DNA of 64,000 nt from Oculatellaceae cyanobacterium bins.114 (GTDB taxonomy: Bacteria > Cyanobacteriota > Cyanobacteriia > Elainellales > Elainellaceae). The notes under the pieces were generated by a model. It did no database searches. It was given only the letters and a program-made list of their open reading frames with translations, and was not told the origin of the DNA. Below, one piece after another: positions 24,401-50,007 of this stretch (positions are counted from its first letter, which is position 1; every line of letters starts with the position of its first letter). Location of the stretch: positions 13,304-77,303 of the forward strand of contig JANRJA010000092.1 of assembly GCA_033764315.1 (NCBI GenBank), written 5' to 3'. Both the position numbers and the translations under genes were made by a program.

Positions 24401-24534
24401 CTTACAACCGCGTCACCACTACTGCGATCGTGTTGTTGGCACTCTTAATCATTGCAGCTGTATTTTTGCTCTCTAGGCAACAGCCTAAAGCTACAAAACA
24501 CAAATTGAGTAGTGTTGAGGTTAAACCCCTTTAA
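21451..24534 (+). CDS. Triple-TIR protein with TM-Cache-TM sensor
   Basis: Three TIR starts (AFISYGR, VFLSYAT, VFISYSR), each with a YC..E motif; TM; Cache-like region (YAPQRPWY, WTDVY, GVISIAI); C-terminal TM. Confidence 0.85.
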   Translation: MQGFQDAFISYGRADSKAFAAKLHHRLVERGLTIWFDFDDIPLGVDYQKQIDDGINRADNFIFIISPHAVNSPYCRLEIELALKWNKRIIPLMHVGQIDRHIWQERNPNGTDADWENYQAQGLHSCFTNMHPKIAKINWVYFREDQDDFDQSLAGLLDIFDRHQDYVHQHTLFLVKALEWEENQRRSQYLLVGEERQQAETWLKKRFTDSQPPCVPTELHCEFITESIKNGENLMTQVFLSYATEDRNVAQKIRSSLLREAFTVWINTTDIQTGVDFENAIKQGIEEADNIVYLLSTNSLQSHYCQLEIDYALSLNKRIVPILVSAIDTQELPAALRNLQYIDLTDNILETDYQQDENQLLRVLRQDATYYQEHKVLLTKALKWERYNYNPTFLLRGYNLRHAEAWLKLALQHPRSPTTSIQEKFIAESQRQPPGVVVDVFISYSRADSGFGRQLNEALQMQGKNTWFDQESIASGSDFQQEIYRGIETANHFLFVLSPSSINSPYCADEVEYAAKLNKRVVTVLHRPINPANLHPELAKVQWLDFNQRDGDFSSNFKDLLRILDTDSNHLKAHTWLLVRAIEWDNKGRSDSLLLRGDDLEEAEQWLTQSQTKQPEPTELHQNYIRKSREVEAANQRLAQAGARAQQMVRVGWVVLSATVVVGATVWVGARLVAQKMVDSAVNLWLKSTVPAISREIGTLFSQVGSTQQIIREAFTDKLIDINNQNELEVFYITLAKAHPSLNWIQFGFPNGNYFGLQHTQEGNINIINRVYDPQTQQATRTIESYQQVNDSTLKLVDTLSTPEDYYAPQRPWYRGAVGNPGRQTWTDVYMFASTQTPGIDSSITVQQHDQLLGVISIAIELRQLSMLLERLQEGQPGALFIITPKGELIASSDLRDLGFTSTERDVPDLVTLDEVKNPLAKFASQVFRAHHTPLEEIKTQQTFEYRDPDSEIKYRIAINPIHHLDWNLVVVMPESVLTEEFDSYNRVTTTAIVLLALLIIAAVFLLSRQQPKATKHKLSSVEVKPL

Positions 24535-25199: not shown

Positions 25200-28100
25200 A
25201 TGGCATCAGCACAAAATTCTGACTCAGATCGTTCTTCAAACTCTCCAGACTTAATCGTTACGGCAGAACAGGTTGCCACACTTCAGGCAAAAAATGCTGA
25301 TTTAGAACGACAGGTGCAACAGTTGCAGCAGGCACTTGCTGCCAGTGAAGCGAGCCATCATGCCTCTAAAACAAACTTAAATGGCATTCTCAATAGTGCG
25401 ATCGCCGCTATTGCTAGCTTTCGTGCCTACCAAAACCGAGAGTGGCACTATGAGTATCTCTCTAGTGGATGTGAAGTTGTGTTTGGCTACACTCCAAAGG
25501 AGTTTTTAGCAGACCCCGCTCTTTGGAAATCACGGATATTTCCAGAGGATTTTACGAATGTCATCAGTCCTGCGATCGCTCAAATCTTTGCAGGAAAGCC
25601 TTTTCAAATGGAGTATCGTTTCTATCACAAAGATGGCAGCCTGCGATGGATCTGTGACAGTATAACGTCTGAGCGAGATGAGGTAACCGATAGCTGGCTA
25701 GTAACCACCGTTACCTTAGACGTGAGTGAACGTAAACAAACCGAGGTGGAGTTACAGCGTAACCGTGATTTCATCGAACGTGTCACTGACGGTTCACCGC
25801 AGTTGCTCTACATCTTTGACCTTGTTCAACAACGTAATTTTTATATAAATCGTCAAATCACCGCTATTTTGGGCTATACGCCAGAGGAGATTCAGGCGTG
25901 GGGCAAGCAATTTTTTTTGGACTGTCTTCATCCTGATGATCTGCTGAAAGTTCAACAGGCTCTCCAAGGTTGGGACAGCGTTCCTGATGGAGAATATGTA
26001 GAACTTGACTATCGTCTGCGTCACAAAAATGGCTCCTGGTGCTGGTTACGATCGCGCGATGTGGTGTTTGAACGAGACGAGACTGGGGCACCCACCAAAA
26101 TTCTAGGAACAGCAGTCGATATTAGCGATCGCAAGCAAGTAGAAGAAGCACTGAAATTAAGTGAAGAACAACTGCGTCAAATCGTTGAGAATATTTCCGA
26201 TGCTTTTTTCTTAAAGGACATGGCAAGCGGGCAGTTAATTTACACTAACTCTGCCTATGAAACTATGGTTGGGCGATCGCCCCAAGTATTCTATGACAAC
26301 CCAGATGCTTGGACAGAAACAATTCACCCTGACGATCGAGCCGTTATCATGGCTAAATATCAGCGGGAGAAACAAGGCGTCAGTTTTTTCGATGATGAAT
26401 ACCGCCGGGTTCATGCCGATGGTTCTATTTATTGGGTGCGGGATCGCACTTTCCCCATTCGTGATGAGCACGGCAATATTTATCGTTGTGCTGGGGTCGT
26501 TCGTGACATCACCGAACGCAAACAACTGGAACTAGCCCTTCAAGCCTCTGAAGCCAAGCTCAATGACATCCTTAATAGTGCAACGGCTGCCATTTGCAGC
26601 CTCCGGGTGGATGAAACAGGTAGCTTTGAATATGAGTATATGTCATCGGGTTCTAAAGCCGTCTTTGGTTACACCGCAGATGAATTTGTATCTGATAAGA
26701 CCTTATGGCGATCGCGCGTTTTTCCAGAGGATCTCGGTCGAGTGCTTCCCCCCGATCAAATTACGCAAGAAATCACCGATATCGTACCGTATCGCTTTTA
26801 TCGTAAAGACGGCAGTCTGCGCTGGCTCTCTAACCATATTAAAGTTAGGCGAGATGAAGCGACTCATACCTGGCTGATGACCATCATTGATATCGATATT
26901 CACGATCGCAAGATGGTTGCGATCGCCCTTGAAGAATCAGAGGCAAAACTGAGCGATATTTTGAACAACGCTGGAGCCGCTATTACTCGGTTTCGATTGT
27001 TTACTCATCTCAAGTGGGTCTATGAATTCTATTCCTCCGGCAGTGAGACAATTTTTGGCTATTCAGTAGACGAGTTAATGAACACAGACGGGTTATGGCT
27101 ATCCTGTGTCCATCCAGATGATTTACAACAAGTCCATCTTCCAGCACTTCAAGATTTGTATGCCGAACGTTCTGCCACGATCGAGTTTCGTTTCCGTCAA
27201 AAAGATGGCTCTTGGCGATGGATTTCAGAAACAGCCAGTTCAAAGCGAGACGATGCAGCGGATTGTTGGATTGTCACTTGTGTTGCTACTGACATTAGCG
27301 ATCGCAAACGAGCCGAGGAAGCATTACGACAGAGCGAGCAAATTTTTAGACAAGCATTTGAAACGAGTGCATTTGGCATTAGCCTGCGGTCTCCTGACGG
27401 ACAATATCTGCGGGTCAACCAAACCTTCTGCCAAATTTTAGGGTATACAGAAGCTGAATTGTTGACATTGACCTATCGCGATGTCACTCACCCAGATGAT
27501 CTCGCGATCGCCCCAAACGAGACTCTCCACAAACTTATAGCTGGAGACATTCCCTATTACCATCTTGAAAAACGGTTTTTGCACAAACAAGGCCATATTG
27601 TTTGGGGATTGATCAGCATGTCAGTGGTGCGCGATCTCCAGCAACAACCCCTTTACTTTGTCACTCAAATTCAAGATATTACCGTTCGCAAACAACTAGA
27701 ACTGGCATTACAAGCCTCCGAGACAAAACTCAATAACATTCTCAATAACACGATCGCAGCTATTTCGAGTTTTAGAATCTTGGCTAATTATGATTACAAA
27801 TATGATTATTGGTCTGACGGGTGCGAGGCTATCTATGGTTATAACGCTCAGGAGTTAATGAATGACAAGTATCTCTGGATCTCGCGTGTTCACCCAGACG
27901 ATGTCGAGAGAGTCATTGCAGCAGAACTGGCCGCTATCTTGGCTGAAAGCACTCTGTCCTACGAGTTTCGGTTCTATCACAAAGATGGGTCGTTGCGCTG
28001 GATCTCAGTAGAGTTGCTCTCTAAACGAGACGAAGCCGCAAATTGTTGGGTTGCTAACTGTGTTGACATTGACATCACAGAACGCAAACAAGCTGAAGCA

Positions 28101-29936
28101 GCGTTGCGCTTAAGCGAAGAACAACTTCGTCAAATCATTGAAAATATCCCAGATGTATTCTTCTTAAAAGATGTAGCGACTGGAGGGTTAATATATCTCA
28201 ACTCAGCTTATGAAACGCTGTATGGGCGATCGCGCCAGTCGTTGTATGACAATCCTGATTCCTGGACAGAATCAATTCATCCCGATGACTTTGCCCACAT
28301 TCAGACTAAATATCAAGAGGAATTACAACAGTTCGTTTTCTTTGATGATGAATATCGTCTAACTCGTCCAGATGGCTCCATTCGTTGGATTTGGGATCGT
28401 ACGTTTCCAATTCGCGATGACCAAGGCAAGATTTATCGCTATGCTGGTGTTAATCGTGACATTACCAATCGCAAACAACTAGAGCTAGCACTGCAAGCCT
28501 CTGAAGCCAAGCTTGATGATATTCTCAACAGTGCGATCGCGGCTATCTCTAGTTTTAGAGTATTTGCCAATCGAGATTGGAACTATGAATATTGGTCTCA
28601 TGGTTCCGAAACTATCTATGGATACACTCCTCAAGAATTGATGGCTGATCAGCAACTCTGGGTATCTCGCATTCATCCAGACGATTTAGAAACCATTATC
28701 TTGCCGGGTTATGCCAACATTTTTGCAGCATCCACCTTTTCTTTAGAGTTCCGGTTCTATCACAAAGACGGGACTTTGCGCTGGATTAGTGGAGCATTTA
28801 TCTCTCGTCGAGATGATCACAATAATTGTTGGGTCGTGACCGTAGTTAATATCGACACGACCGATCGCAAACAAGCTGAGATTGCCCTCCGCCATAGTCG
28901 CGAAGAATTGCGCCTGATCACCAATTCGCTGCCTGCCTGCATTGCTTACTTTGACGCTGAACAACGATATCGCTTTGTCAACAACACCTATGAGCAATGG
29001 TTTGGATACCCTACTCAAGCCATTTTGGGTAAACACATCCGAGAAGTGATCGGTGAAAGAGCCTATGCCTTGACCCAGCATCACATTCAACAAGTTCTGA
29101 CTGGACAGACAGTTCAATACGAAATGGAGAAGCCCTATACAAACGGTACCCGATATGTCTCCGCTATGCTCGTTCCTAATATTGATCCCACCACTACAGA
29201 GGTGCAAGGTTGTTATGCGCTGATTACTGACATTAGCGATCGCAAACAATTTGAAAAACAGTTGCAGAAATCACTGCGTGAAAAAGAAATTTTGCTAACT
29301 GAAATTCATCATCGAGTCAAAAACAACTTACAAGTCATCTCTAGTCTGCTCGATTTGCAAGCTAATCGTTCTCAAGATATGCACATCCAAACTGCATTAA
29401 AGATCAGTCAAGACCGTATTTTATCAATGGCGTTAGTGCATGAAGCCCTTTATCGGTTTGAGCAGTTTGCCGAGATGAATTTTGCCACCTATGCAGAAGG
29501 TCTAGTCAATCACTTACTCAGTGGGTATGCGTCGCCAGGGCAAACCGTCATCGTTAACCTTGATATAGATCCAAGCATTACCATCGCGCTAGATCAAGCT
29601 GTGCCCTGTGGTTTAATTCTCAACGAATTGGTGACTAACGTGATGAAATATGGATGTCGGGATGGAGAACCCGGACATTTATATGTCCAGTTAGAACGAG
29701 TCACAGAGTCAAATATTCAACTGACTGTCGGAAATGATGGGGATACGTTGCCTAAAGACTTTAGTATTTCTAAGGATGTGTCAATTGGCTTTACCCTGGT
29801 GCAGGTTTTAACTGATCAACTCAAGGGTAAGTTTGATATTGACCGAGACGACTCCCCCGTTGGAGACACGACTGCCCATCGCACTTTGTTTAAAGTGACA
29901 TTTCCCCACCACCCCACCTCAAATTTAGATCTGTGA
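25200..29936 (+). CDS. Soluble multi-PAS (about 10) sensor histidine kinase, HisKA_2 type
   Basis: Repeated PAS/PAC units ending DI(S/T)(D/E)[14 protein letters not shown]-box; LNELVTN N-box. Confidence 0.92.
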
Positions 29937-32855: not shown

Positions 32856-33022
32856 TAACCTGAGTTCGGGATAAGGATTTTGGCGGTTGAAACCGCGGTT
32901 ATACGAGCAGAACCAACCTGCCTCTGTTCAGTAAACCTTTAACTTTGCCAGTCCGCGAAGGCGGACTTCGCTCTGGTAGCCGCGAATTTATTCGCTAGGC
33001 TGCTTTAACCTAACTAACGTTA
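32856..33022. repeat. Host MITE-like repeat abutting the att site
   Basis: TAACCTGAGTTCGG...CC(T/G)AACTAACGTTA imperfect terminal IR; internal GTCCGCGAAGGCGGAC hairpin. Confidence 0.55.
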
Positions 33023-33091
33023 GGTACTGTAGATTTTGATATGGGCAGTACTGGACTCGAACCAGTGACATCCTGCTTGTAAGGCAGGCGC
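32999..33091 (-). repeat. att direct repeat (duplicated 3' part of tRNA-Val plus 43 bp flank)
   Basis: 93 bp matching 49892-49984 with 3 mismatches. Confidence 0.95.
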
Positions 33092-33182
33092 ATCCCTATT
33101 CTAAAAGGCTCTGGAGTGCCTATAAAAGCGTATTCCATCCTGTAGGGGTCTATGCTCTGGACTAAACTCTGGACTGGTTACG

Positions 33183-36218: not shown

Positions 36219-36330
36219 CCCGGTATACCGGGAATGACAAGAGTTTTTATATTAGTATTTCCCGGTATACCGGGAAACTTGCATAAACAGAACTCATTAA
36301 TTGAATTACTGTAATCCCTGGTATACCGGG
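36219..36330. promoter_or_regulatory. Three palindromic operator-like sites CCCGGTATACCGGG
   Basis: Copies at 36219-36232, 36261-36274 and 36317-36330 (one mismatch) between divergent genes. Confidence 0.75.
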
Positions 36331-36363: not shown

Positions 36364-36600
36364 TTGAGGAGAAAACCTATTGTGCTGACAGTGGCGAATC
36401 AAGATCCCGTACTCTCTGACGAGTTCAAAAAAGCTCAAATCCCCAAGGATCAGCGGTTTGAGCTATCAAAAAAGCCGTATTGTTTGAAGCTTCCGATCAA
36501 CATTGATCAATGGTTGCGATCGCATCCCAACGGTGTAGAGATTGCCAGGAATGCCCTCATTCAGGCAGTTAACGAGCATCAACAATCTGGTGAAGAGTGA
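36364..36600 (+). CDS. Small putative DNA-binding protein
   Basis: KPYCLKLPINIDQWLRS...IARNALIQAV is RHH-like; start uncertain. Confidence 0.55.
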   Translation: MRRKPIVLTVANQDPVLSDEFKKAQIPKDQRFELSKKPYCLKLPINIDQWLRSHPNGVEIARNALIQAVNEHQQSGEE

Positions 36601-36940: not shown

Positions 36941-38188
36941 TCACTTGCAACTTGAACCATCAAACCCTTTGAAGTCGAGGTAATTTATGGGATTCTCAGG
37001 CGTTCCATTGCGGTGAATTTCCAGGTGGAGGTGTGAGCCTGTTGAGAGTCCAGTAGTTCCCATTAGGGCGATAACTTGACCCTGAGAAACGCGATCGCCC
37101 TGCTTCACCATTAGTTGCTGACTGTGGGCGTAAAGGCTTTCCAGTCCATCACCGTGGTCAATCACAACCTTATACCCAAAACCATCACCAGCATCACCAG
37201 CCGTCACCACAGTGCCAGATGCGATCGCCCTGATTGGGGTTCCTGTTGCTCCTGATAGGTCAATCCCTAAATGAGGTCTTACCACCTTAAGAACCGGATG
37301 CAAGCGATCAGGGTCAAAGCAGGATGAAACAGTAGCCTCGTTGGGTGAGAGTGGTAGAGCAAGCGTGGTAGTCGTTGCACCTCTGGCAGAGAGAACAGAG
37401 GCGATCGCCTTCATCCGTCTGCTCTGGTCGTGCTCAATCGTCACACCTACAGCAGCAAGACCAGGGGCATCGCCTTCAAAACTTGCGATTCTGGCACATA
37501 GGATTAAGTCATCCCCAACCTTGCCTGAGTCTTGGCATCGCTTAAGGTACTCAGCAAAGCTTGCTCCGGCACGTGGGCTTTGATTGGTTAAGTCTGCCAA
37601 GTTGAGAATAGTGGCTGTATCGGGTGTGATGCCTAACTGCTCCAACTCCAACAACTCAGGCTCAATTTGGCTTTTGAGTCGTCGGATCTGCACCTTATCG
37701 GCTTCCTGTGGTGAGGATGCACCATGAATGTAACTGAACGTCCCCAGGTTTAGATAACCGCTGTCATAGTGCCCATTAAATGCGGATGTAGTCCCTCCAT
37801 CAGCGGTTCTCGTTCCTTCTGAAACACCAATGGCGATCGCTGCTAGGGAATCAGAGCCACCATCAAAGTGAGACTCCCATGAAACATTCTCAGTCGTGGC
37901 ACCATCGCAAATCTCAAAGGGCATAGCCGCTCTACCCCAAGCAGGCAGGAGAGAGCAGCTATTATTCACGATCCAATCGAGTGAGGCTACTGTGAAACAA
38001 GTAGTCGCACAGACAAAGCAAAGGATCGCATCATTCCACAAAGCCTGCCAGGTCACAGCATCTTCTACAGCGCCGACCTGCTTGCTGATCCGCTTGTTGG
38101 ACTTGGCGATCGCTCCCTGTTGCCGTTCGATTCGTTCGAGTCGGTCTGAGATGGTGTTGAGTTGTTTGGCAATGTCGGTGGATTCCAT
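36941..38188 (-). CDS. Peptidoglycan hydrolase: lysozyme-like domain + M23 metallopeptidase
   Basis: M23 motifs HLGID, YAH and STGSHLHLEI; central AIGVSEGTRT..G resembles the Glu motif of lambda-type lysozymes (inferred). Confidence 0.85.
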   Translation of the reverse strand: MESTDIAKQLNTISDRLERIERQQGAIAKSNKRISKQVGAVEDAVTWQALWNDAILCFVCATTCFTVASLDWIVNNSCSLLPAWGRAAMPFEICDGATTENVSWESHFDGGSDSLAAIAIGVSEGTRTADGGTTSAFNGHYDSGYLNLGTFSYIHGASSPQEADKVQIRRLKSQIEPELLELEQLGITPDTATILNLADLTNQSPRAGASFAEYLKRCQDSGKVGDDLILCARIASFEGDAPGLAAVGVTIEHDQSRRMKAIASVLSARGATTTTLALPLSPNEATVSSCFDPDRLHPVLKVVRPHLGIDLSGATGTPIRAIASGTVVTAGDAGDGFGYKVVIDHGDGLESLYAHSQQLMVKQGDRVSQGQVIALMGTTGLSTGSHLHLEIHRNGTPENPINYLDFKGFDGSSCK

Positions 38189-38280
38189 CGTTCTACCTGA
38201 TCGGGTAATGCTACGCGAATGACAACGAAAACAGTCAGCCCTAAGAGGGTCAATCTCAAGCTGTTAATCAATGCCGTCAT
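38065..38280 (-). CDS. Small single-TM protein, or frameshifted N-terminus of the M23 gene
   Basis: ATGA-coupled to the upstream ORF; TM LTLLGLTVFVVI; overlaps the M23 ORF out of frame. Confidence 0.45.
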   Translation of the reverse strand: MTALINSLRLTLLGLTVFVVIRVALPDQVERWNPPTLPNNSTPSQTDSNESNGNRERSPSPTSGSASRSAL

Positions 38281-38495
38281 AGGTCATTCCCTCCCTGATC
38301 AGAAGGCGTCGGATCTGCATCCTGACGTGTTTCTGGCGATTCCCATGAAGCAGGCTGACGCGTGATAATCTCTTGCACAGTTCCAACAACGTTCAGCACA
38401 ATCCCGTTAATGTTGATAGAGCCATCAGCTAGACACCGCAATAGAACAGGGATACCGACGATTACAATCGCGATCGCACCGATTAGATTTTTCAT
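38277..38495 (-). CDS. Small single-TM protein
   Basis: N-terminal hydrophobic helix; GGAG RBS. Confidence 0.6.
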   Translation of the reverse strand: MKNLIGAIAIVIVGIPVLLRCLADGSININGIVLNVVGTVQEIITRQPASWESPETRQDADPTPSDQGGNDL

Positions 38496-38553
38496 TTTTT
38501 GAGTTCTCCAGAGTCAGTTTCAGTAACCAAAAATTGCCGCAAAAAGTCGTCGC

Positions 38554-39999
38554 CTAAGCCGTCTCAGGGTAGACAAAAGGGTTTTCAAACGATTCTTCAA
38601 ACCCAGTCGTATCAGTTGCCGTAGCCATTCCCTCTGTCTCCCCTCGTCTCCCATCGCCCAATTTCACCGAATTTTCAGGGTTAGGAACCCCTGATCCAAG
38701 GGCTTCAATTTTTGACTTGAACAACAGGTATTTTTGGTTAGTAGCCTTCATCTCTTTTCGGCTTTGACCTGCCACTGTTACCCAAAACTCAGTAATGGCG
38801 ATCGCCTGTTTCCCCTCGCTGACACGCTCCAACATCCGCTTGAGAATCTTGGCTTCAAGTTCAGACGTCCAGAGTTGGTTAAACCACTCCTGATCGGGAT
38901 CTGTAACCGCTTCATCTGCCTCATCAACAAACTCAACTTGTTCAATATGGAGGGCTGGCAGTGCCTTGACTGAAAGAGCCTTATCAGTGAACACAACGCA
39001 CGGTCTAAGGTCTTTAACGACCTTGGGCACGTTGCCCATCTGCCTGATCACCTCATCCACTTGGTTTGTGTCGAGGTTGTCATAGTTGCGTTTGCTCTGG
39101 GATGCGCGATACAAGAGCAGCACTTCGAGCAGTTTGAGCAAGGCTCTAGGGATGCCAGAGCTGCCAACACTCAAGTCATGTAAGCCAAGTAGGAAGGTGA
39201 CATTACCTTGCTTGATACCCCTGTTGCAGATGTTTCTAAGTGACTTAATGATTTCCTCTAAAGCCTTCTCCTCAAGAGAGTCTTTGAAGCTGATCCACTC
39301 ATCAACCAAAAGCAGGATGGGCTTAAACTGCGGTTTGGATCTGCCCTGTTTGATGGCATCGGCTGTTTTTCTGGCACGGGTCGCAACCTCACCAGCAACC
39401 ATATGGATCACAGCCTCGATGTCGGTCATCTCAATGAAAACGACCTTTCCCACTGGCAGGTTAAACCAGGTGTTTGGATCAGCGCCCTCGTGAGATGAAC
39501 CGTAATCCGGGTCAGCGATGTAAATTTCCGCATCCGGATGCTGTTGCAGAAACCGTTGCACTCTCCACAAAAGCAGATGAGTCTTACCATCCTTGCTCTC
39601 ACCGCAGACAATAGCCGATCGCTTCTCAAAGCCCTTAAACCAGTCAGTTTCTAGACCTTGTTTGGCGATGAACTGATCCGCTAACTTTTCACCCATTGGC
39701 ATCTGTTTCAGGGCACTAATCACCAGGCGTTGCTTGCCTTGGGCGATCGCTTGACTGGCAGGTAAAGCAACCTCATTCAGATCACCGATCGCCTCTTGCA
39801 AATATTGGGATGAACCCCTGAAGACATCGACATATTCAAGTTTGCGACGGCTTCTAAGAGCCTCACCCACACCCCACATACTGAATCCGCCTAACCAGTG
39901 ATAGGCACTGCTAGCGGTCACACACATCGTGAAGCTGGCAGCGAATAGACTACCAATCACCAGCTTTTCAGCGTTGCTGACACCGTTAGTAGTCTGCAT
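38554..39999 (-). CDS. Membrane-anchored P-loop ATPase, FtsK/HerA-like
   Basis: N-terminal hydrophobic segments; Walker A GESKDGKT; Walker B ILLLVDE. Confidence 0.75.
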   Translation of the reverse strand: MQTTNGVSNAEKLVIGSLFAASFTMCVTASSAYHWLGGFSMWGVGEALRSRRKLEYVDVFRGSSQYLQEAIGDLNEVALPASQAIAQGKQRLVISALKQMPMGEKLADQFIAKQGLETDWFKGFEKRSAIVCGESKDGKTHLLLWRVQRFLQQHPDAEIYIADPDYGSSHEGADPNTWFNLPVGKVVFIEMTDIEAVIHMVAGEVATRARKTADAIKQGRSKPQFKPILLLVDEWISFKDSLEEKALEEIIKSLRNICNRGIKQGNVTFLLGLHDLSVGSSGIPRALLKLLEVLLLYRASQSKRNYDNLDTNQVDEVIRQMGNVPKVVKDLRPCVVFTDKALSVKALPALHIEQVEFVDEADEAVTDPDQEWFNQLWTSELEAKILKRMLERVSEGKQAIAITEFWVTVAGQSRKEMKATNQKYLLFKSKIEALGSGVPNPENSVKLGDGRRGETEGMATATDTTGFEESFENPFVYPETA

Positions 40000-40495
40000 T
40001 GCCTAAGACCTCCTCAAAAGCTTGGATGAGTGCTGATGGGTTAACCGTGGTTTGGTCGGATGCAACACCACCATTGACAACCCAGTGGTAGGCAACGAGA
40101 CATGCTGACAGTTCAGCAGTCCGGTTGAGCAATTCACCATACTGGACGGCTTCACCCGTCACAGTGCCGTATTGCTGTCTTAGCGAGGCGATGTCACCAG
40201 CAACATCGCGGCAAAGTTTGTCAGTCCATGCGATCGCGTCACCCGATTCTTGAGCCTTGGTGAATAGCTCGACGGCACGAGCATTAATCACCGATCGGAT
40301 CGATTGCGAGTAGATATCTCTTGCCAGTTGTAGATAGGGTGAATTGGCTGAAACAGCGTCACCACTTGAAGGCGACGTTCCAGGGTTGCTTATGGCGATT
40401 GCTGGCTCTTGCCTTGAGGGAGGTGCCGATAGACCCCTGACAATCAGGACAGTCACCAGGGCAACGACAGGAACAGAAATGAACTTGCTAATCAT
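39986..40495 (-). CDS. Hypothetical membrane-anchored/secreted protein
   Basis: N-terminal hydrophobic helix; overlaps both neighbours. Confidence 0.65.
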   Translation of the reverse strand: MISKFISVPVVALVTVLIVRGLSAPPSRQEPAIAISNPGTSPSSGDAVSANSPYLQLARDIYSQSIRSVINARAVELFTKAQESGDAIAWTDKLCRDVAGDIASLRQQYGTVTGEAVQYGELLNRTAELSACLVAYHWVVNGGVASDQTTVNPSALIQAFEEVLGNADY

Positions 40496-40853
40496 GGTGT
40501 TTCACCTCTTCCATGAGTCGTGACCACATTTCAAGCTCTTGCTCACTGAGGAGAGGTTGAGACAGCTTGCTACGGGCAATACGACGCAATGCAGCGCGAT
40601 CGCTTTGGTCAGGTGCAATCACCACACTGAGAGCATAGAAAACCAATGTGGTAATGAGGATGGATGGCAGCAATGCCCACACATCACCTTGGAATCTTCC
40701 CCATTCCTCCAATGGCACCTCGTAATCAGCCGAAATTTTGTGGTAAAGGTCATTCAACCCGTACAGCATCCCCAGGATCACGCCTCCACTGGTGAGCGAG
40801 AATCCAAGGATGCTACCAGGCGTTAAGAGTCGATTGAATCGTTGATGGGTCAT
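40488..40853 (-). CDS. Hypothetical two-TM protein
   Basis: ATG 40853 overlaps the upstream TGA; two hydrophobic segments. Confidence 0.65.
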   Translation of the reverse strand: MTHQRFNRLLTPGSILGFSLTSGGVILGMLYGLNDLYHKISADYEVPLEEWGRFQGDVWALLPSILITTLVFYALSVVIAPDQSDRAALRRIARSKLSQPLLSEQELEMWSRLMEEVKHHD

Positions 40854-41059
40854 GGCTTCATGCCTCCTTTGGTGGGCACAATTAGCCCACAAGCTTTAAG
40901 AGTCCTGATGGCAGTGGCGATCGCTGTCTTCGGTCTGTCAGTGAACTGCTGGATGCGTTCAGGTGTGGCTACTGCATCACAGGCATTAATCGCGGCAATC
41001 GCACCCCAAACGTCTGTCTCTGCGTCCGTGAACGGTCGGATTTGATAGGCAGTTGGCAT
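40850..41059 (-). CDS. Small winged-helix-like protein
   Basis: TPERIQQFTDRPKTAIATAIRTLKACGLI resembles a wHTH; GAGGAGG RBS. Confidence 0.55.
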   Translation of the reverse strand: MPTAYQIRPFTDAETDVWGAIAAINACDAVATPERIQQFTDRPKTAIATAIRTLKACGLIVPTKGGMKP

Positions 41060-41072
41060 TGTTCAACCCTCC

Positions 41073-41258
41073 TCAAACCAGAGCTAAGAAGTGAACGCAG
41101 AGATTCACCAGGTGTTGTTGTCCCTGGTTTGGTGCAATGCCAAAAATCCGCCATCGAGCGAGAGCAATGGCAGCGATCGCGGCTGCATCGATGGGGATTC
41201 CTACAGAAGTAAAGCTTTGAAAGATTTCTCGTCGAAGTTGTTTGAAATCGGCATTCAT
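41073..41258 (-). CDS. Hypothetical protein
   Basis: GGAG RBS; lies in the operon. Confidence 0.5.
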   Translation of the reverse strand: MNADFKQLRREIFQSFTSVGIPIDAAAIAAIALARWRIFGIAPNQGQQHLVNLCVHFLALV

Positions 41259-41337
41259 AATGGTCGTATCTCCATTTTTGAAAGGGTGGGGATGGGCTAC
41301 TGCTGAACTTGTCGAGGGTCACAGCAGTAGCTTTCGA

Positions 41338-41616
41338 TTACGCTGCATCGGATTGAAACGAGCGAATCCACTGCAAGATGCGATCGCGGTTGTTGTCGGT
41401 AATCTGCTCATCACCTTTGATAAGGTCTGCACAGCTTGCGATTCGATAGAGGCAGTCATCAGCGTCGTATTTGCCGCTGTTGAGGCGTTGAATCTGGGTT
41501 GTGATGTAGTCGCGATCGGAGCCTGAAAGACTTGTCAGGAGGTTTGGCGATACTTGAGCAGGTTTTAAGGTTGGATCGTGCTCCATTAGCCATTTACGAA
41601 AGCTTTTGAGAATCAT
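41338..41616 (-). CDS. Hypothetical protein
   Basis: AGGAG RBS; lies in the operon. Confidence 0.6.
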   Translation of the reverse strand: MILKSFRKWLMEHDPTLKPAQVSPNLLTSLSGSDRDYITTQIQRLNSGKYDADDCLYRIASCADLIKGDEQITDNNRDRILQWIRSFQSDAA

Positions 41617-41660
41617 GTGTGGTGTCTCCTGTGGTGAATCCGTGGTGTTTTCGCTGCCGA

Positions 41661-41915
41661 TTAAAAACCCTGAATGGGATCTGAGAACTTGAAATCGGGT
41701 TCAACTTGTGACGATGACGATGGACTGTAATAGTTGGCAGGGTTGGGATCGGCGTATCGGGTCGGGTCTAATTCCCAGGTTTCAAGTAAATGGCGTCCAT
41801 ACCTGCTCACCATTAGGGCGATCGCTGCACTAGGTGATGTGGTTCGTGTTTTTGCTTGAATCTGGTCAACCACATTTCTGATGTCAGGATCTAGAACAAT
41901 GCGACTCTGACTCAT
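41661..41915 (-). CDS. Putative ParR-like adaptor (84 aa)
   Basis: ATGA-coupled to the ParM-like gene; N-terminal strand-helix-helix pattern and acidic/Pro tail. Function inferred from position. Confidence 0.55.
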   Translation of the reverse strand: MSQSRIVLDPDIRNVVDQIQAKTRTTSPSAAIALMVSRYGRHLLETWELDPTRYADPNPANYYSPSSSSQVEPDFKFSDPIQGF

Positions 41916-42916
41916 AGACCCAACATCCCCACAATCGAGATAGTCTGAGGGTTTGGGGCAATCTTGAAACGTCCTTTGGTTGCTTCTTGCAATGGAGCGG
42001 CGATCGGGGCAGAGCCACCAATGATTAGCACTTCTCCTAAGTTGGCAAGCCACTGCCCCCAACGGGTTTTGATTTGACCTCTGATGTCTTCTAACCACTG
42101 CTCACGTGCTGACTCAAAGGCGGCATGGAAGCAATAGCCAGTAGTGCCCAACATGAAATCTCCTGCCTCAATGCCATCCATAATCAGCGACAGGTCAGGA
42201 CTGGCAGATAAGTCACGAGTGATCCGGGCGGCAATGCGTCGGGCTAAGTCAAACGTGCCAGGAAGGATCAGATCGGCTTCCCGCATGAGGGAGCCTGAGA
42301 CGCTGTAAAGCCTGAGAATGCTTGTCCCCCCTCCCAGATCTAGAACTCCGTTGGTATTGCGTTTGCTGAGGAACAGACCTTGCTGAGTGGCGTAACGGTA
42401 TGCTGCAACCGTTTCATCAACTGGCTCAACCTTGCGAACAGTGGCAATGATGGTTTGACCATTGCGGGTGAATTCGTGTGTACCTTCGATCGCTTTCAAC
42501 GATTCAACATCGGCATCATTGCGAGAGTTGGGAAGGGCGATCGCCAGTCGTTCGACTCTCACGGCATCAGCCCCCGGCATTGGTTCCAATGCTGTCAGCA
42601 CCAATAGACGAGCCAGTTTAACCTTGTCCTTCTCAAACACTGGACTGCCTGACAGGTCTTTAGCAACTTGACCCACGACAAAAGTAGAGCCTTCAAACTC
42701 AATCACCATAGAGTTTTCATCAGGGCTGACATCTTCCCATGTGGGATCGATCGGCTTGATAAAACTGGGGATGGTATGAACGTTGCTGAGTGGGTCAACC
42801 CATTGGATCGTGCGATTGCCACCGTCGAAGGCAACGAGGGGACGGATCAGATTCTTTGTATCCGTTAAAGGTTCGTTACTTGTCCGTCTTTCGGACTTAG
42901 CTAGAGCGGTACTCAT
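41912..42916 (-). CDS. parM: ParM/StbA-family actin-like ATPase
   Basis: AFDGGNRTIQ (phosphate 1), VLDLGGGT (phosphate 2), IIGGSA (adenosine); AGGAG RBS before ATG 42916. Confidence 0.85.
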   Translation of the reverse strand: MSTALAKSERRTSNEPLTDTKNLIRPLVAFDGGNRTIQWVDPLSNVHTIPSFIKPIDPTWEDVSPDENSMVIEFEGSTFVVGQVAKDLSGSPVFEKDKVKLARLLVLTALEPMPGADAVRVERLAIALPNSRNDADVESLKAIEGTHEFTRNGQTIIATVRKVEPVDETVAAYRYATQQGLFLSKRNTNGVLDLGGGTSILRLYSVSGSLMREADLILPGTFDLARRIAARITRDLSASPDLSLIMDGIEAGDFMLGTTGYCFHAAFESAREQWLEDIRGQIKTRWGQWLANLGEVLIIGGSAPIAAPLQEATKGRFKIAPNPQTISIVGMLGL

Positions 42917-43115
42917 TGCGGGTGAATTCTCCTGAAACGTATTAGCTGTAAAGATTTGAAGCATTTCTGGAAGACAGGTAAGCACTTTTTTACTGTTCGT
43001 TGCCTATCCGTTTCGTGTCCCTTGCTTGTACAAATAGTATCACACCAAAGTACAAGAGTGTGCTACTTTATTACTGTAATCTCGTAACCCGCTAAGATCG
43101 AGGAGTTGAAAGAAC

Positions 43116-43361
43116 GTGAATCTTTTAGTGCCTACGCAGAAGCCCCGAATTGTCTCCTATTGCGACGAAGAAACCCATGAAATCCTCAAAGCAATTGCTG
43201 TAGAGGAGGATCGGAGCCTATCGAAATTGGTTGATATGCTATTGGCAGAGTTAGCGCAGCTAAAACCAGTTTTGGATGCTTATCGAAGTGATGCGGCATG
43301 GAAGGGACTTCCCTATGCCCAGAAAATTAAAATTCTGATCGAAGAAACAACCAAGAAATAA
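43116..43361 (+). CDS. Ribbon-helix-helix regulator
   Basis: IVSYCDEETHEILKAIAVEEDRSLSKLVDMLL. Confidence 0.75.
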   Translation: MNLLVPTQKPRIVSYCDEETHEILKAIAVEEDRSLSKLVDMLLAELAQLKPVLDAYRSDAAWKGLPYAQKIKILIEETTKK

Positions 43362-43917: not shown

Positions 43918-44376
43918 TTGACCACCCGTGTAGCAGAGAAAGTTTGGTCGCTAAGACTGCTCTACGGTATTCGCCCAAAGGAAAGGCACACCTTTATCCA
44001 TATGAATTGTAATGTTAAACCGCACAAACCCGCAAGTGTATCAAGTCAGTCTCATAGCAAGACTGTTAAGTCCAATTTTTCCTATCCTGTCTCTTTCAAT
44101 TCTACAAAAAACCGTGTTAAAAGTCAGCATCGTCAGGTTAGTCTTTTCGACCTGATTGACACTGGTGAGGCTTCACCTAAATCAGAAGAGACTTGGGGAG
44201 ATTTAGAGGAATCCCTTGAAACACTAGCCGCTATGCCGTTTCTTCAGCAGTTTTTTGGTGTCGTTCAAGCCGCAAAATTTCACAGGATTGAGTTCAAGGT
44301 TTTTCGGTCGCTTTTCTATGAGTGGCAGGAGTGTCGGAATAATTTTCAGCTAGAAAAAGGGAGTGCAGACCTATGA
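43918..44376 (+). CDS. Hypothetical protein upstream of rep
   Basis: Stop overlaps the rep start (ATGA); true start may be ATG 44002. Confidence 0.5.
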   Translation: MTTRVAEKVWSLRLLYGIRPKERHTFIHMNCNVKPHKPASVSSQSHSKTVKSNFSYPVSFNSTKNRVKSQHRQVSLFDLIDTGEASPKSEETWGDLEESLETLAAMPFLQQFFGVVQAAKFHRIEFKVFRSLFYEWQECRNNFQLEKGSADL

Positions 44377-45158
44377 ACGCTCCTTTTCTAGAAGAGTTTC
44401 AAAAAAGCGCAATTCCTGATCATTTGAGCCTTATCAACGTGCGGTGGATTAAAGGCGATGAAGCTATTCAAATTTTGGCAGAAGAGGCAATTTCCAAAGC
44501 TCAAAAGGTTGAAAGTTTTGTAACCAAATCTGCTTCCAAAATCCTCAACAAATATGCTTTTGCAGCAGCAGGTGGGTGGGTTGCCTATGGTTGCGATGCT
44601 GACGGTAAGCTTTCAGGCACAGTGCCATTATTCAAGCCTCTAGAGCCTCGTAAAGAGCTGGAAAATGGGAGGCTGAAAACAATCAAATATGAAACCCCCC
44701 AGGGGTATCAGGCTACCCCTATCCTGCCGTGGGTTGACGAGTTGACAGCGGCAGCAATTTACAAATGGTACGGCGTGACCCCATTAGAGGGTGAAACGTT
44801 CTGGCAGGTAGTTTGGCGTTGTGGACTGCCGATCGCCATCACTGAGGGACTGAAGAAGGCTCTATCACTAATCGCTCACGGTTTACCTGCGATCGCACTG
44901 CGAGGTGTTGCCTGTTGGCATCTGAAAGGATCTGACAAGCTACATGAATCGATTTCTCACTTTGTCACGCCAGTGCGATCGATTTATATCGTCTTCGATC
45001 AGGACGAAAAATTGAGGACTCAGCGCGATGTGAGAAACCAGATCCTTAAGTTGGGTTCATCCCTTGAACAGAAGGGATGCAAAGTATTTGCACCAACTTG
45101 GGATAGAAAACTTGGCAAGGGAATTGATGACGTTTTATGGGGGTTGAGCAATGAATAA
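44373..45158 (+). CDS. TOPRIM primase-like domain (DUF3854 type), N-terminal part of CyRepA1-like replicase
   Basis: IKYETP, ITEGLKKALSL, IVFDQD, KGIDD. Confidence 0.85.
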   Translation: MNAPFLEEFQKSAIPDHLSLINVRWIKGDEAIQILAEEAISKAQKVESFVTKSASKILNKYAFAAAGGWVAYGCDADGKLSGTVPLFKPLEPRKELENGRLKTIKYETPQGYQATPILPWVDELTAAAIYKWYGVTPLEGETFWQVVWRCGLPIAITEGLKKALSLIAHGLPAIALRGVACWHLKGSDKLHESISHFVTPVRSIYIVFDQDEKLRTQRDVRNQILKLGSSLEQKGCKVFAPTWDRKLGKGIDDVLWGLSNE

Positions 45159-47529
45159 ATCCCATAAGTGGCTCGACGATCTAATCAAGAATGCTCCAAC
45201 CCTAAAGGATTACAAAAGACACGGACGCATTCAGGGAGCTTTAGAGGCGATCGCACGGTTAAATCAGCTTTCCTACCCAGTTGAGCGTGAAACGACAGGT
45301 GAGTATTTGCCACCATTGCCAGAGTTGACCATCGGTTCAATTCACGTTCTTACTGCTGGCATGAACGCGGGTAAGACAACCCGGATCGGCGTTGATTTGG
45401 TGCAATGGGCAAAGGTACGAGAATGGAACGTTTTAGTTATTTCTCCTCTCAACTCACTAGGACAACAAACCGCTAAAGACTGGGAACTATCCCACATCCA
45501 CGATTTTGGCTTATCTAAAGCCGAGCAGGAGGGACTATGGGCAAGTGTTAGCGCATCTCATGGCGTGGTGATGTGTCCTGATTCGTTGCATCGTATTCCC
45601 CAATGGTTTTGGTCACGTCCAACCCTACTAATTCTCGACGAAGCTAACCAAGTGATTGACCACATCACACAGGGTAATACACTGGGCACTCGATGGGCAG
45701 AAATCCTAGAACTGTTCAGTGCGATTGCCTGCCAATCAGCCCAAACTGGGGCAATCGTTTTGAGTGAAGCGGGTATTCCCGATCGAGCAGTGAAGTTTGT
45801 TCAGACCGTTGCAGACTGCGATCGGGTGCGAGTGTTCAAGCACATTAAGCAGGGTAAGCCTTGGAACTGCTCTATTTTCTCAGGTCAAGCCAGTGGGTTT
45901 AGAGCACGGCTGATTCAGTCAATTCAGCAGGGCGATCGCATCTTGATTGTGACCAGCTCTCAGCGCGAAGCGCGACGGCTGCAAAAGGTGATCAGCCAGA
46001 AATTACCCTCAATCAAGGCAGTGAGAGTTGATTCAGAAACCAATCAGCAGGGTGCTTTTAGTAGCTTCTTTGAAAACCCAGATCAGTGGTTAAAAGACAA
46101 TCAGCCAGACGTTTTAATCCTCTCTCCCAGTGCTAAGTCAGGCGTGAGCATTGAGGGCAATGTTCCCGTTGAGAGTGCTTACTTTTCATCGGTTTGGGGT
46201 TACTTTCCAACTCTGGCAACCGACACTCATATGCAACTTTTAGGACGATACCGCCCATCAGTACCACGCTACATCTTTGTACCTCCCTTCATCATGACCG
46301 ATGGGGACGAGTCACTATTTACCCCCAGAGCAGTGAAGCGACGACTAAACACCAATCTGAAGGGCTTTGCAGGTGTTTACGACTTGCACGAATTGATTGA
46401 AGCTGACGATACCCGCGCCGAATCACTGGTGAGAATAGAGACAGCAGTTCTTGATTATCTGGCAGCGTCAAAGACTGTCAGTGGTGCTCAGAAGTCAATT
46501 GCTCATGACGCATTAGCTAAGGAGCTGGAGACAGCAGGGCACACGGTCAAGTGTGTTCAATCTCAAAAGGATGCAACAACAGTTGAGTTGTGGAAGGATA
46601 TCCAGGAGGAGATCTGGCGTGAGGACGCAGCAGCGATCGCCAGTGCGGTAGTCGAGGATCGGCACACTCCAGAGTGGGCACACAGAACCCTAGAATCTCT
46701 CGAAGTCAGTTTAGAAACTCGCATTCTTGCCCAGAAGGTAATCTGGCGTGAGCAATTTCCTGGCATATTGTTTGATGACGCTGAGGAATGCTATCAGACG
46801 CTTTGCAAAGACTACGGAGCTATGCGACGTGGTGTGACGTTGCAGGCTAAAGCAGAGAATCTAGAGGCAGCGAAGGAAGGCGATCGTGCCAGCGTTGAGG
46901 CAATTTTGAAGTCCCGGATCAGAGCAATTCACCACTTGCCTAAAAACTACTTCAAGGCATTGTTAATTGCCAAGACAGGTGTTTTGGAGCTACTGAATGG
47001 TGAATGCTATTCCAATACCCACCCAAAAGCCCTACAGATTAGAAAAGCGGCACTGTACTGGGCTAACGAGATTAGCTACTGGTTGCGTTTACAAATCAAG
47101 CCAGACCAAACTCCAGTCGAAATCTGTAACAAGTTAATCAGGAAGATTGGATTAAATGGTGTTGCAGACAGCAGACCAGGGCAGCGAGGAACGAGTCGCG
47201 ATCGTGTCTACGTAATTGAAGGGATGGAGAATCCTGTCAGGCAGCGGTTATTAGAAGCCCTTCGTCGTAAGACTTCTAGCTCCGTGTCCACCGTTTGTAA
47301 TAAAGATAATTCCTCTATTCAAATCATGGACACCAGTATTCAAGGCGCTTCTACTCTCCCTCCAAAAACAGATTTTTCTCCCCAATCTTTAGTGAAATGG
47401 GGTTCCAGAATTTGTGATTGGGTCATTTTGGAAATAGAAGGTGCGATCGCCAAAGTCAGACAGGTCAATACCCCTCTGTCTAGCGTTGTTTGGGATGCTC
47501 CCATTGATGAGTTGAGGTTAATTGCATGA
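45151..47529 (+). CDS. Helicase-like part of CyRepA1-type plasmid replication protein
   Basis: AGMNAGKT, CPDSL, LILDEANQV, SPSAKSGVSI, QLLGRYR. Confidence 0.85.
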   Translation: MNKSHKWLDDLIKNAPTLKDYKRHGRIQGALEAIARLNQLSYPVERETTGEYLPPLPELTIGSIHVLTAGMNAGKTTRIGVDLVQWAKVREWNVLVISPLNSLGQQTAKDWELSHIHDFGLSKAEQEGLWASVSASHGVVMCPDSLHRIPQWFWSRPTLLILDEANQVIDHITQGNTLGTRWAEILELFSAIACQSAQTGAIVLSEAGIPDRAVKFVQTVADCDRVRVFKHIKQGKPWNCSIFSGQASGFRARLIQSIQQGDRILIVTSSQREARRLQKVISQKLPSIKAVRVDSETNQQGAFSSFFENPDQWLKDNQPDVLILSPSAKSGVSIEGNVPVESAYFSSVWGYFPTLATDTHMQLLGRYRPSVPRYIFVPPFIMTDGDESLFTPRAVKRRLNTNLKGFAGVYDLHELIEADDTRAESLVRIETAVLDYLAASKTVSGAQKSIAHDALAKELETAGHTVKCVQSQKDATTVELWKDIQEEIWREDAAAIASAVVEDRHTPEWAHRTLESLEVSLETRILAQKVIWREQFPGILFDDAEECYQTLCKDYGAMRRGVTLQAKAENLEAAKEGDRASVEAILKSRIRAIHHLPKNYFKALLIAKTGVLELLNGECYSNTHPKALQIRKAALYWANEISYWLRLQIKPDQTPVEICNKLIRKIGLNGVADSRPGQRGTSRDRVYVIEGMENPVRQRLLEALRRKTSSSVSTVCNKDNSSIQIMDTSIQGASTLPPKTDFSPQSLVKWGSRICDWVILEIEGAIAKVRQVNTPLSSVVWDAPIDELRLIA

Positions 47530-49067: not shown

Positions 49068-49601
49068 TTACAACATCCCGTCTATTCCAAAGTTATTGCT
49101 ATTCAGATCTGTACTCTTGGTTTGTCCTTGTTGGACAGTAACAGGCGTCAGCCAGTATCTCTGTAGTTGATCGTCGCCAGAAGCCCAGTTAACACCAAAC
49201 AAAAGATAGTCTCCCGGACTAATTCCTTCTATTGAGTAGTATCCATTTACACTGCTTTGCACTGGCGTTCCACAACTTTGCTTGGCAAAATCTTCCATTT
49301 CGCTTACAGCAGATAAATGCCTCATTTCGTTCACACCTGGAACGTCTGAAATTTCAGAGGAGTTTCTATCTCGAATTTCTTTGAATTGCTGAAAAAGATT
49401 TGACGGACAAGCAAACACGCTCATTCCTCTAATAAGTTCAGAACCTACGTCCGATGCAGAATTTAGATAAACGTAACCATCTAATTTGGCTTGAAGCTGA
49501 GGGCTTTCAGTCGTGGGAGCTGAAGCAGTCGGTAGAGGCTGACTAGTTCCACTGCATCCTGTGATAGCCGCAATGCAAAAAACCAAAGCAATTTTCTTCA
49601 T
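49068..49601 (-). CDS. Putative lipoprotein
   Basis: Lipobox ITGC; NGYYSIEGISPGDY beta-sandwich-like motif. Confidence 0.7.
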   Translation of the reverse strand: MKKIALVFCIAAITGCSGTSQPLPTASAPTTESPQLQAKLDGYVYLNSASDVGSELIRGMSVFACPSNLFQQFKEIRDRNSSEISDVPGVNEMRHLSAVSEMEDFAKQSCGTPVQSSVNGYYSIEGISPGDYLLFGVNWASGDDQLQRYWLTPVTVQQGQTKSTDLNSNNFGIDGML

Positions 49602-49891: not shown

Positions 49892-49934
49892 GCTGCTTTA
49901 ACCGAACTAACGTTAGGTACTGTAGATTTTGAGA

Positions 49935-50007
<73 letters not shown>

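Follow-up and report, generated by a model that had tools for sequence, protein, structure and literature searches.

A membrane ATPase and wall-hydrolase module conserved on mobile DNA of cyanobacteria as a candidate system for DNA transfer to neighbouring cells

What is the function of a gene block that unites an actin-like ATPase, a membrane-anchored ATPase and a cell wall hydrolase, and does it help the DNA that carries it to reach another cell? This question is raised by positions 36941 to 42916 of a stretch of 64,000 nucleotides (nt) from contig JANRJA010000092.1 of Oculatellaceae cyanobacterium bins.114, designated here as the window. A first-pass annotation of the block had proposed a relaxase-free operon for transfer or spreading of DNA. 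The operon consists of two units, a ParM/ParR-like partition cassette and a conserved envelope module of six to seven genes, and is located on a plasmid-like element integrated into a tRNA-Val gene. Transfer or spreading of DNA to a neighbouring cell is the best reading of the module, and it is proposed here tentatively.

The block from 42916 down to 36941 is filled by 11 co-oriented open reading frames (ORFs), all on the minus strand. From the upstream end they are as follows.

41912-42916, minus strand: ParM-like actin-family ATPase, 334 amino acids (aa) from ATG; the frame extends upstream as far as a GTG at 42985.
41661-41915, minus strand: 84-aa ORF, coupled to parM by an ATGA overlap.
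41338-41616, minus strand: 92-aa ORF with GGAG upstream and no match in Pfam, NCBIfam or PHROGs.
41073-41258, minus strand: 61-aa ORF with one transmembrane (TM)-like segment; an alternative frame of 117 aa, 40969-41322, overlaps it.
40850-41059, minus strand: soluble 69-aa ORF, ATGA-coupled to module gene 1.
40488-40853, minus strand: module gene 1, a 2-TM protein of 121 aa from ATG (134 aa from a TTG at 40892).
39986-40495, minus strand: module gene 2, a 169-aa protein with N-terminal TM segment.
38554-39999, minus strand: module gene 3, a 481-aa membrane-anchored ATPase of the FtsK-HerA superfamily.
38277-38495, minus strand: module gene 4, a 72-aa 1-TM protein.
38065-38280, minus strand: module gene 5, a 71-aa 1-TM protein.
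36941-38188, minus strand: module gene 6, a 415-aa peptidoglycan hydrolase.

ATGA overlaps are present at three junctions, namely parM/84-aa, 69/121-aa and 72/71-aa. The 121-aa gene overlaps the 169-aa gene by 8 nt, the latter overlaps the ATPase gene by 14 nt, and the 71-aa gene overlaps the hydrolase gene by 124 nt; the remaining gaps are 13-79 nt. When the upstream 20-mers were read by eye, a GGAG-type motif was recognized in front of 9 of the 11 starts. The 61-aa frame was preferred over the 117-aa one by judgement, on account of its 13-nt spacing to the next gene and the upstream GGAG. The 71-aa and hydrolase genes overlap in different frames (window 38065-38188), as they do by 121 nt in Leptolyngbya sp. 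FACHB-8 (locus L003, 11786-11906), and in this long overlap a low-complexity tail of the 71-aa protein lies against a conserved cytoplasmic helix of the hydrolase. The gene content and co-orientation given by the first-pass annotation were borne out in ORF number, ATGA or short overlaps and domains, and a hydropathy scan agrees with the TM segments that it had named. The 84-, 92-, 61- and 69-aa ORFs have no homologue among the related loci fetched and are predicted genes on the basis of position, start context and overlaps. The 69-aa ORF looks helix-turn-helix-like by eye, has no Pfam match, and its best PDB match (E 0.24) is not significant.

Is the arrangement found elsewhere? In tblastn searches with the ATPase, 2 of 72,556 plasmid records were matched, both from Oscillatoria acuminata PCC 6304, together with three phage records belonging to the Planktothrix phage PaV-LD (two records) and Nostoc phage N1, and a scan of one genome per species added four further ATPase loci. 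The order kept begins with a small 2-TM protein; next come a 1-TM protein of 170-360 aa and the ATPase, then between one and three small TM proteins, and a TM-anchored M23 plus muramidase enzyme closes it. It is complete in the window, loci L003 and L005, both Oscillatoria plasmids and PaV-LD, is cut by contig ends in L004 and L006, and holds down to about 25% ATPase identity. Homologues of module gene 1 (family F3) occur in L003, L004, L005 and L006 (E 4e-25 to 2e-12), those of gene 2 (F6) in L003, L004 and L005, those of gene 4 (F7) in L003 and L005, and those of gene 5 (F8) in L003. An Atlas search with the 169-aa protein was uninformative, with every score below 0.9. The replicases encoded beside the module are of the CyRepA1/DUF3854 type in the window and L003, DUF3987 in L005 and L006, and DUF5906 on the plasmids; with three unrelated replicases, the module has the behaviour of an accessory function of mobile DNA that is complete in itself. 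In L006, a tRNA-Ser gene adjoins a 359-aa ORF (1037-2328) with a sub-threshold match to Phage_integrase (E 0.0069), which may be a divergent tyrosine recombinase and suggests that related elements are also integrative. A type I CRISPR-Cas system (Cas3, GSU0053, GSU0054) is the neighbour of the module and of a fused DUF3854-helicase replicase in Leptolyngbya sp. FACHB-8 (L003 14487-21320), an arrangement reminiscent of the Synechocystis defence plasmid pSYSA.

Three parts make up the 481-aa ATPase: a TM hairpin at the N-terminus, the RecA-like core that bears the Walker A and Walker B motifs, and a conserved C-terminal helical domain at about residues 368-437. Walker A residues G133, G138, K139 and T140 and Walker B residues D233-E234 are invariant or nearly so in sets of 22 and 88 sequences, and a TM-like segment precedes Walker A in 115 of the 132 family members of at least 300 aa. 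All 21 relatives with 37-62% identity are about 440-500 aa long, and the few that are named belong to Leptolyngbya or Thermoleptolyngbya; a second word-index search, with a profile, revealed no further named relatives. An exhaustive HMMER search of 1.84 billion representative proteins recovered 117 cluster representatives at E<=1e-3, and the nearest clusters in the Atlas are in Cyanobacteriota and Uroviricota. The profile of 88 sequences matched the PDB entries of EccC/FtsK (4nh0, 3.9e-12), HerA (3.1e-11), FtsK (6.7e-6), TcpA (4.9e-5) and TrwB (1.9e-3). An AlphaFold2 model with a predicted local distance difference test (pLDDT) score of 80 has a helical hairpin at residues 9-51, a RecA-like core and a single ATPase domain, and the C-terminal helical domain is modelled at pLDDT of about 90. 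The coupling protein TcpA of pCW3 (6o1w, E 7.3e-7, TM-score by target 0.44) was recognized by Foldseek as the best match of this model and the FtsK motor with double-stranded DNA (6t8b, E 2.5e-6) as the second; EccC/EssC, HerA, STIV2 B204, A32-like packaging ATPases and a Nodularia phage protein are among the further structural matches. By its Walker motifs, profile and fold similarity the ATPase is a member of the FtsK-HerA superfamily, and its first-pass description as a membrane-anchored FtsK/HerA ATPase was right, as it groups with FtsK, TcpA, EccC and HerA both by profile and by Foldseek.

The hydrolase has a cytoplasmic N-terminal helix, a TM segment at about residues 55-73, a domain at about 100-270 designated here as AEGT, and an M23 endopeptidase domain at 305-400. 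The last of these was identified by Pfam (Peptidase_M23, E 1.7e-32) and by PDB matches to M23 enzymes with E down to 1.7e-23, and the zinc-binding HxxxD/HxH motifs are present in the translation as HLGID and HLH. Residues of about 100-270 are modelled confidently (pLDDT about 95) and have no Pfam match and no PDB match by sequence or profile. An invariant Glu, E124 of the AEGT motif, closes a helix that is followed by a beta-hairpin. Foldseek gave one weak endolysin match (8app, E 0.06), and the matches of the whole model are mostly to M23 enzymes. The AEGT domain has 53 cyanobacterial homologues, some of them in reversed order with M23 first. In relatives, the same slot is occupied by GH108 (Oscillatoria plasmids, PaV-LD) or by a GH24 phage lysozyme (L005), and judged from the predicted fold and motif the AEGT domain is probably lysozyme-like. 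The lysozyme-like plus M23 assignment proposed earlier is accordingly firm in its M23 half, with intact motifs, and moderately supported in the other. All these hydrolases have an N-terminal TM segment, in most of them after a cytoplasmic helix. The muramidase domain is swapped between loci and the pairing with M23 and the TM anchor are kept, which argues for selection on the pairing. The module is built on an ATPase family and a lysozyme-like domain that both lack a name, and it may belong among the FtsK-family DNA translocase systems of mobile elements.

Is the DNA that carries the operon mobile? The flanking DNA is chromosome-like and cyanobacterial, with rpsU, infC, sbtA/sbtB and carbonic anhydrase genes at 51-58 kb of the window. 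Between two copies of a direct repeat the following features were annotated besides the operon.

32999-33091: left, att-like repeat copy, which shares part of its length with a tRNA remnant (33042-33110, minus strand; Rfam tRNA, 33.3 bits against a gathering score of 29).
36219-36330: three copies of palindrome CCCGGTATACCGGG, of which one has a mismatch; a 78-aa ORF (36364-36600, plus strand) follows downstream.
43116-43361, plus strand: 81-aa ribbon-helix-helix regulator, divergent from parM (PHROG Arc-like repressor, 2.6e-5).
43918-47529, plus strand: replication module with a 152-aa ORF, a DUF3854/Toprim protein (44373-45158) and a CyRepA1-family helicase (45151-47529).
49892-50007, minus strand: right copy of the direct repeat (49892-49984) and intact tRNA-Val(TAC) at 49935-50007 (ARAGORN; Rfam, 74.8 bits).

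The repeat is 93 nt long, and its copies at 32999-33091 and 49892-49984 are 97% identical with three mismatches; the identity breaks off sharply at both ends of each copy. The right copy comprises the 3' 50 nt of tRNA-Val and 43 nt downstream. Site-specific integration of a 16.9-kb element has left this repeat pair as its scar; the element is plasmid-like, extends from about 33.09 to 49.89 kb, and lies in the 3' half of the tRNA-Val gene. In the replication module, DUF3854 was recognized by Pfam (E 5e-32) and CyRepA1 by NCBIfam with 215.9 bits against a cut-off of 200, so the element has its own replication initiator, of a family that is known from cyanobacterial plasmids. The homologue of the ribbon-helix-helix regulator in locus L005 carries Pfam RHH_1. 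The palindromes CCCGGTATACCGGG form a cluster about 600 nt past the hydrolase stop; three matches were found against 0.03 expected, and three were reached in 0 of 100 shuffles. They may represent a cis-acting site (operator, centromere, origin or transfer locus), and they may simply be an operator. A scan for promoters and terminators gave no more sites than shuffled sequences. Just inside the right end of the element, a 177-aa protein (49068-49601) has a lipoprotein-type signal, with Cys after an N-terminal hydrophobic stretch, and no family match. A 208-aa protein adjoins the left repeat and has a weak NikA-like/ribbon-helix-helix match (E 0.004, below cut-off).

The partition cassette is the first of the two units of the operon. 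Its first gene was assigned to ALP_N by Pfam (E 5e-8, 33.7 bits against a cut-off of 26.3), to the PHROG for partition protein (E 5.9e-19) and to the pSK41-type ParM 3js6 in the PDB (E 5.4e-4); the NCBIfam ParM match (E 1.2e-9) is below its cut-off. The 84-aa ORF, without family match in the Pfam and PADLOC scans, is by its position a candidate ParR-like adaptor, and no clear repeat array of the parC type was recognized upstream of parM. The order of an actin-like ATPase gene and a small coupled gene is that of ParMRC. The CorMR/FcmBC systems, cyanobacterial derivatives of ParMRC, are described as chromosomal cell-shape systems of heterocyst-forming cyanobacteria (bioRxiv 10.1101/2025.06.27.661541, PMC12645912), whereas the copy in the window is on a mobile element and its ParR is a candidate only.

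What else does the element encode? Thirty ORFs were compared with Pfam, NCBIfam and PHROGs, and a further scan took in 50 of the 108 frames that run from stop to stop over 50 aa or more. The other 58 are nested in, or run antisense to, parM, the block from the 134-aa ORF to the hydrolase, or the replication genes. At E<=0.01, these ORFs and frames gave no family of relaxase, VirB4, capsid, portal or terminase, in a search that a divergent relaxase could escape. There was no match to VirB4/CagE/AAA_10 among them, and P-loop proteins were limited to the 481-aa ATPase and the replicative helicase. A Pertussis_S1 match of a 70-aa frame (E 0.0059, 16.9 bits against a cut-off of 21.3) was discarded as due to chance. 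A defence system was likewise rejected, as the PADLOC matches were confined to a coiled coil and to 41 residues of a P-loop (mad8).

How could these parts work together? The most economical reading is that the module represents one envelope-spanning machine for mobile DNA, because it is a conserved unit with gene overlaps, occurs on unrelated replicons, and combines a TcpA/FtsK-like ATPase with a tethered hydrolase of two activities. The pairing of a membrane ATPase with a two-activity wall hydrolase is also found in conjugation systems of thick-walled bacteria. The ParM/ParR-type cassette would keep the excised or replicating form of the element in dividing cells. The hairpin-anchored ATPase could assemble into a ring at the cytoplasmic membrane and, if DNA is its substrate, pump the DNA of the element outwards in double- or single-stranded form. 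The passage through the membrane would be formed or gated by the small 1- and 2-TM proteins, several of which are translationally coupled, and the tethered bifunctional hydrolase, with its glycan-cutting AEGT domain and peptide-cutting M23 domain, would breach the thick wall of the cyanobacterium locally. The DNA would be delivered to a cell beside the donor, which could be a mating partner or the following cell of the trichome. All this may proceed without a VirB4-type secretion system, in the manner of Streptomyces TraB/Spd.

The TraB/Spd systems of Streptomyces and the actinomycete integrative and conjugative elements (AICEs; pSVH1, pSAM2) are described with a single membrane FtsK-like ATPase beside coupled small membrane proteins, no relaxase or VirB4, and filamentous hosts, as in the window (PMC4447253, PMC3429521). 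AICEs also share with the window element the tRNA integration with direct repeats and an own replicase (PMC3429521). The likeness of the ATPase to TraB is at superfamily level, as the window protein is under the Pfam FtsK_SpoIIIE cut-off and has no identified clt-reading winged helix. Most AICEs are reported to use a rolling-circle Rep (PMC3429521), whereas the window element has a replicase of primase-helicase type, CyRepA1. It differs further by a dedicated bifunctional wall hydrolase, a diderm envelope and no integrase found. The TraB/AICE analogy drawn in the first-pass annotation is supported in layout (tRNA site, replicase, FtsK-like ATPase, small TM proteins), and no integrase was found in the ORFs and frames scanned.

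In Thermus thermophilus, ICEth1 is described as an element of about 15 kb in a tRNA gene between direct repeats, much as in the window, with a membrane-binding hexameric ATPase of HerA/FtsK type, TdtA, and TdtA pushes DNA out of the donor without relaxase or type IV secretion system (T4SS) in a process named transjugation (PMC5365140). TdtA fits HerA best (PMC5365140), whereas the window ATPase is nearer to TcpA and FtsK. ICEth1 is reported not to replicate after excision and to enter the recipient through its competence system, and no equivalent set of hydrolase and TM proteins is described in the available text of that source (PMC5365140).

Several observations weigh against transfer as the function of the module or against parts of the first-pass reading. 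The single ATPase sequence is under every Pfam and NCBIfam cut-off (AAA_22 E 0.006; NCBIfam EssC E 8e-4), FtsK_SpoIIIE touches only 8 of the 88 family members (E<=0.01), and the C-terminal domain has no PDB sequence match and no identified DNA-binding fold. The palindromes CCCGGTATACCGGG have no counterpart in the related loci, and no repeats near the module are common to the relatives. No integrase was found in the scanned ORFs and frames, and the element may be immobile or decaying; it may also use a recombinase in trans, have lost its own, or encode an unrecognised one. ParM is located upstream of the module in four of the seven non-phage loci (window, L001, L002, L006), in L003 and L005 that position is occupied by a 196-aa protein unrelated to it, and no ParM is present in the short upstream stretch of L004. 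Because of this, the ParM/ParR pair is a separable partition cassette and not part of the module core, and of the parM-ATPase-M23 synteny expected earlier the part from ATPase to hydrolase is conserved, beside three unrelated replicases, and the ParM part is not obligate. About 30 kb from the module, a MOBP relaxase is encoded on one Oscillatoria plasmid; the second plasmid was typed as non-mobilisable. Freedom from relaxase and T4SS, as claimed in the first-pass annotation, thus applies to the window element, where none was detected, and not to the whole family. In phages of the A-1(L)/N-1 group, the ATPase gene is in the early/replication region without an adjacent hydrolase, so the ATPase can work apart from the hydrolase. 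Finally, the whole module is present in the tailed phage PaV-LD, from ORF129 to ORF122, where ORF123 (M23) is reported as an endopeptidase and ORF124 as a holin, and their expression in Escherichia coli and Synechocystis damages membranes and inhibits growth (PMC9096620).

The main rival of transfer arises from this last point, and it is possible but clearly less probable. The module would be a lysis or hydrolase-export cassette, in which the TM proteins, as holins or gatekeepers, set free the M23 plus lysozyme enzyme, with the result that the cell is lysed or the wall is opened for release of DNA, vesicles or proteins, and the ATPase is separate or regulatory. Among the PHROGs, the window hydrolase matches those for phage endolysins and peptidases (best E 1.6e-29). 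As in a lysis cassette, it stands beside small membrane proteins; location in a virion genome, the other feature of such cassettes, applies to PaV-LD and not to the element. No lysis cassette is known to need an ATPase, and here the ATPase gene is tied to the membrane genes by overlaps of 8 and 14 nt and conserved with them in every complete locus. The module is also found on stably maintained plasmids, with no virion genes annotated on the two complete Oscillatoria replicons, and on the window element, which has genes for partition and replication and in which no virion genes were found. The PaV-LD genes ORF129-ORF122 have the gene order of the window, with homologous ATPase (1.8e-13) and M23 (7.2e-22), and the nearest relatives of the PaV-LD ATPase are the copies on the Oscillatoria plasmids (4e-32). 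PaV-LD differs as a virion-forming tailed phage with M23 and GH108 in separate genes, and its published reading is host lysis, with ORF124 and ORF123, at positions equivalent to those of the window, described as a holin and an endopeptidase of synergistic bacteriolytic effect (PMC9096620). Bacterial secretion systems of holin and endopeptidase are also described (PMC4259817, PMC9527704). In our view, toxicity upon over-expression in E. coli and Synechocystis cannot separate a lysis enzyme from a conjugation-type hydrolase. A literature search, with most subscription journals outside it, revealed no description of the module, no function for cyanophage FtsK-like genes, and nothing that links the FtsK-like ORF127 of PaV-LD to ORF123/ORF124.

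Mobilisation with a helper is improbable. A TcpA-type coupling protein would hand DNA, nicked by an unrecognised relaxase, to a T4SS elsewhere in the genome, and the hydrolase would assist. TcpA of the Clostridium perfringens plasmid pCW3 is the best structural match of the ATPase core, and both proteins are coupling-protein-like with an N-terminal TM part. TcpA has N-terminal TM helices and works alongside the wall hydrolase TcpG, and pCW3 needs in addition the VirB4-like TcpF, the VirB6-like TcpH and the relaxase TcpM, none of which has a counterpart found in the window element. The MOBP relaxase of the one plasmid and the NikA-like match of the 208-aa protein at the left repeat point towards a helper, yet no relaxase family was found in the window element or on pOSCIL6304.01, and helper-dependent elements are usually without an own wall hydrolase and membrane gene set.

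Septal segregation is credited with no more likelihood than a helper. Here the ATPase, like FtsK/SpoIIIE, would clear copies of the element or phage across closing septa into daughter cells, hormogonia or akinetes, and the hydrolase module would be independent. The FtsK-motor fold, the ATPase without hydrolase in the A-1(L)/N-1 phages and the maintenance theme given by the neighbouring ParM are consistent with it, and a role of phage-borne FtsK/SpoIIIE genes in bringing the phage genome into spores has been suggested (PMC8597652). It leaves unexplained the conserved coupling to TM proteins and to a TM-anchored dual hydrolase in six loci, and partition is already served by ParM.

Protein export of type VII, in which an EssC-like ATPase, its membrane partners and the hydrolase secrete the small proteins encoded upstream, is very unlikely: EccC/EssC are among the best PDB matches of the profile, EssC is touched in NCBIfam, and small soluble ORFs of 69-92 aa lie upstream, but EssC/EccC have several ATPase domains and WXG100 partners against one domain, not three, in the window, no WXG100, FHA or EssB/EsaA family was found there by Pfam and NCBIfam, and the small soluble ORFs are not conserved in relatives. 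The remnant of a tailless membrane-containing virus, with a packaging ATPase of A32/PRD1 type and a lysin, is hardly credible either, for although STIV2 B204 and A32-like ATPases were matched by Foldseek and Pox_A32 touches 5 of the 88 family members, neither Pfam nor PHROGs gave a capsid family in the element, a search that a novel capsid protein could escape, the plasmids have no annotated virion genes, and packaging ATPases of this type are soluble and, among those matched, about 200-320 aa long compared with 481 aa and a membrane anchor here.

If the module serves transfer of DNA to a neighbouring cell, how far does the transfer reach? The distant branch of the ATPase is present in seven phages of heterocyst-forming cyanobacteria of the Nostocales (N1, A1, A-1(L), Elbi, Dfl-JY23, YongM, YongM2), is 61-72% identical to the N1 copy, and is encoded beside helicase and polymerase genes (A-1(L), L010 5001-6593; N1, L009 5443-7020). 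All named hosts are filamentous, namely Leptolyngbya, Thermoleptolyngbya and Oscillatoria, and for the phages Planktothrix, Nostoc, Anabaena, Dolichospermum and Nodularia. Phages of unicellular cyanobacteria are numerous in public collections, and among 50,697 phage records no match was found in any of them. This host pattern speaks for the transfer reading. It is a raw count that ignores kinship and sampling, with perhaps three independent lineages behind the phage matches, and to that extent it calls for caution. A doubtful extension of the transfer reading is that of a ‘movement apparatus’ common to plasmids, integrative elements and even tailed phages, all of which would rely on one kind of membrane-anchored FtsK-like translocase, small membrane proteins and a tethered dual hydrolase. 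Their genomes would thus cross the septal wall between successive cells of the trichome, and possibly enter other filaments, without a T4SS or an extracellular stage.

Outside the element, several other genes of the window were recorded. Two adjacent AAA_35 NTPase genes (5046-9376, minus strand) encode an N-terminal TIR fusion of 521 aa and a TPR-repeat fusion of 938 aa, a STAND-like pair that may function in signalling or defence. A protein of 1027 aa (21451-24534) has three TIR domains followed by Cache/PDC sensor domains, and a histidine kinase of 1578 aa (25200-29936) has at least nine PAS domains and a kinase core of HisKA_2/HWE type. In a 252-aa ORF (4093-4851), an IS200-like Y1 transposase domain is represented by its C-terminal part alone (E 5e-5).

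What would the module mean for cyanobacteria? In a survey of 424 cyanobacterial plasmids, only 6% were predicted as conjugative and 6% as mobilisable (PMC8600333). Even if it serves lysis or export, it comprises an undescribed ATPase family, with 117 representatives among 1.84 billion proteins, and fixed partner genes, and it raises the question of whether the lysis genes of PaV-LD are only that. The ‘movement apparatus’, if true, would be the cyanobacterial counterpart of Spd spreading in Streptomyces and, for the phages, of the movement of plant viruses through plasmodesmata. Relaxase-independent transfer of the FtsK type has been called peculiar to mycelial actinomycetes (PMC3429521), with Thermus as a separate case (PMC5365140), and the module is a testable candidate for a second multicellular lineage that uses it.

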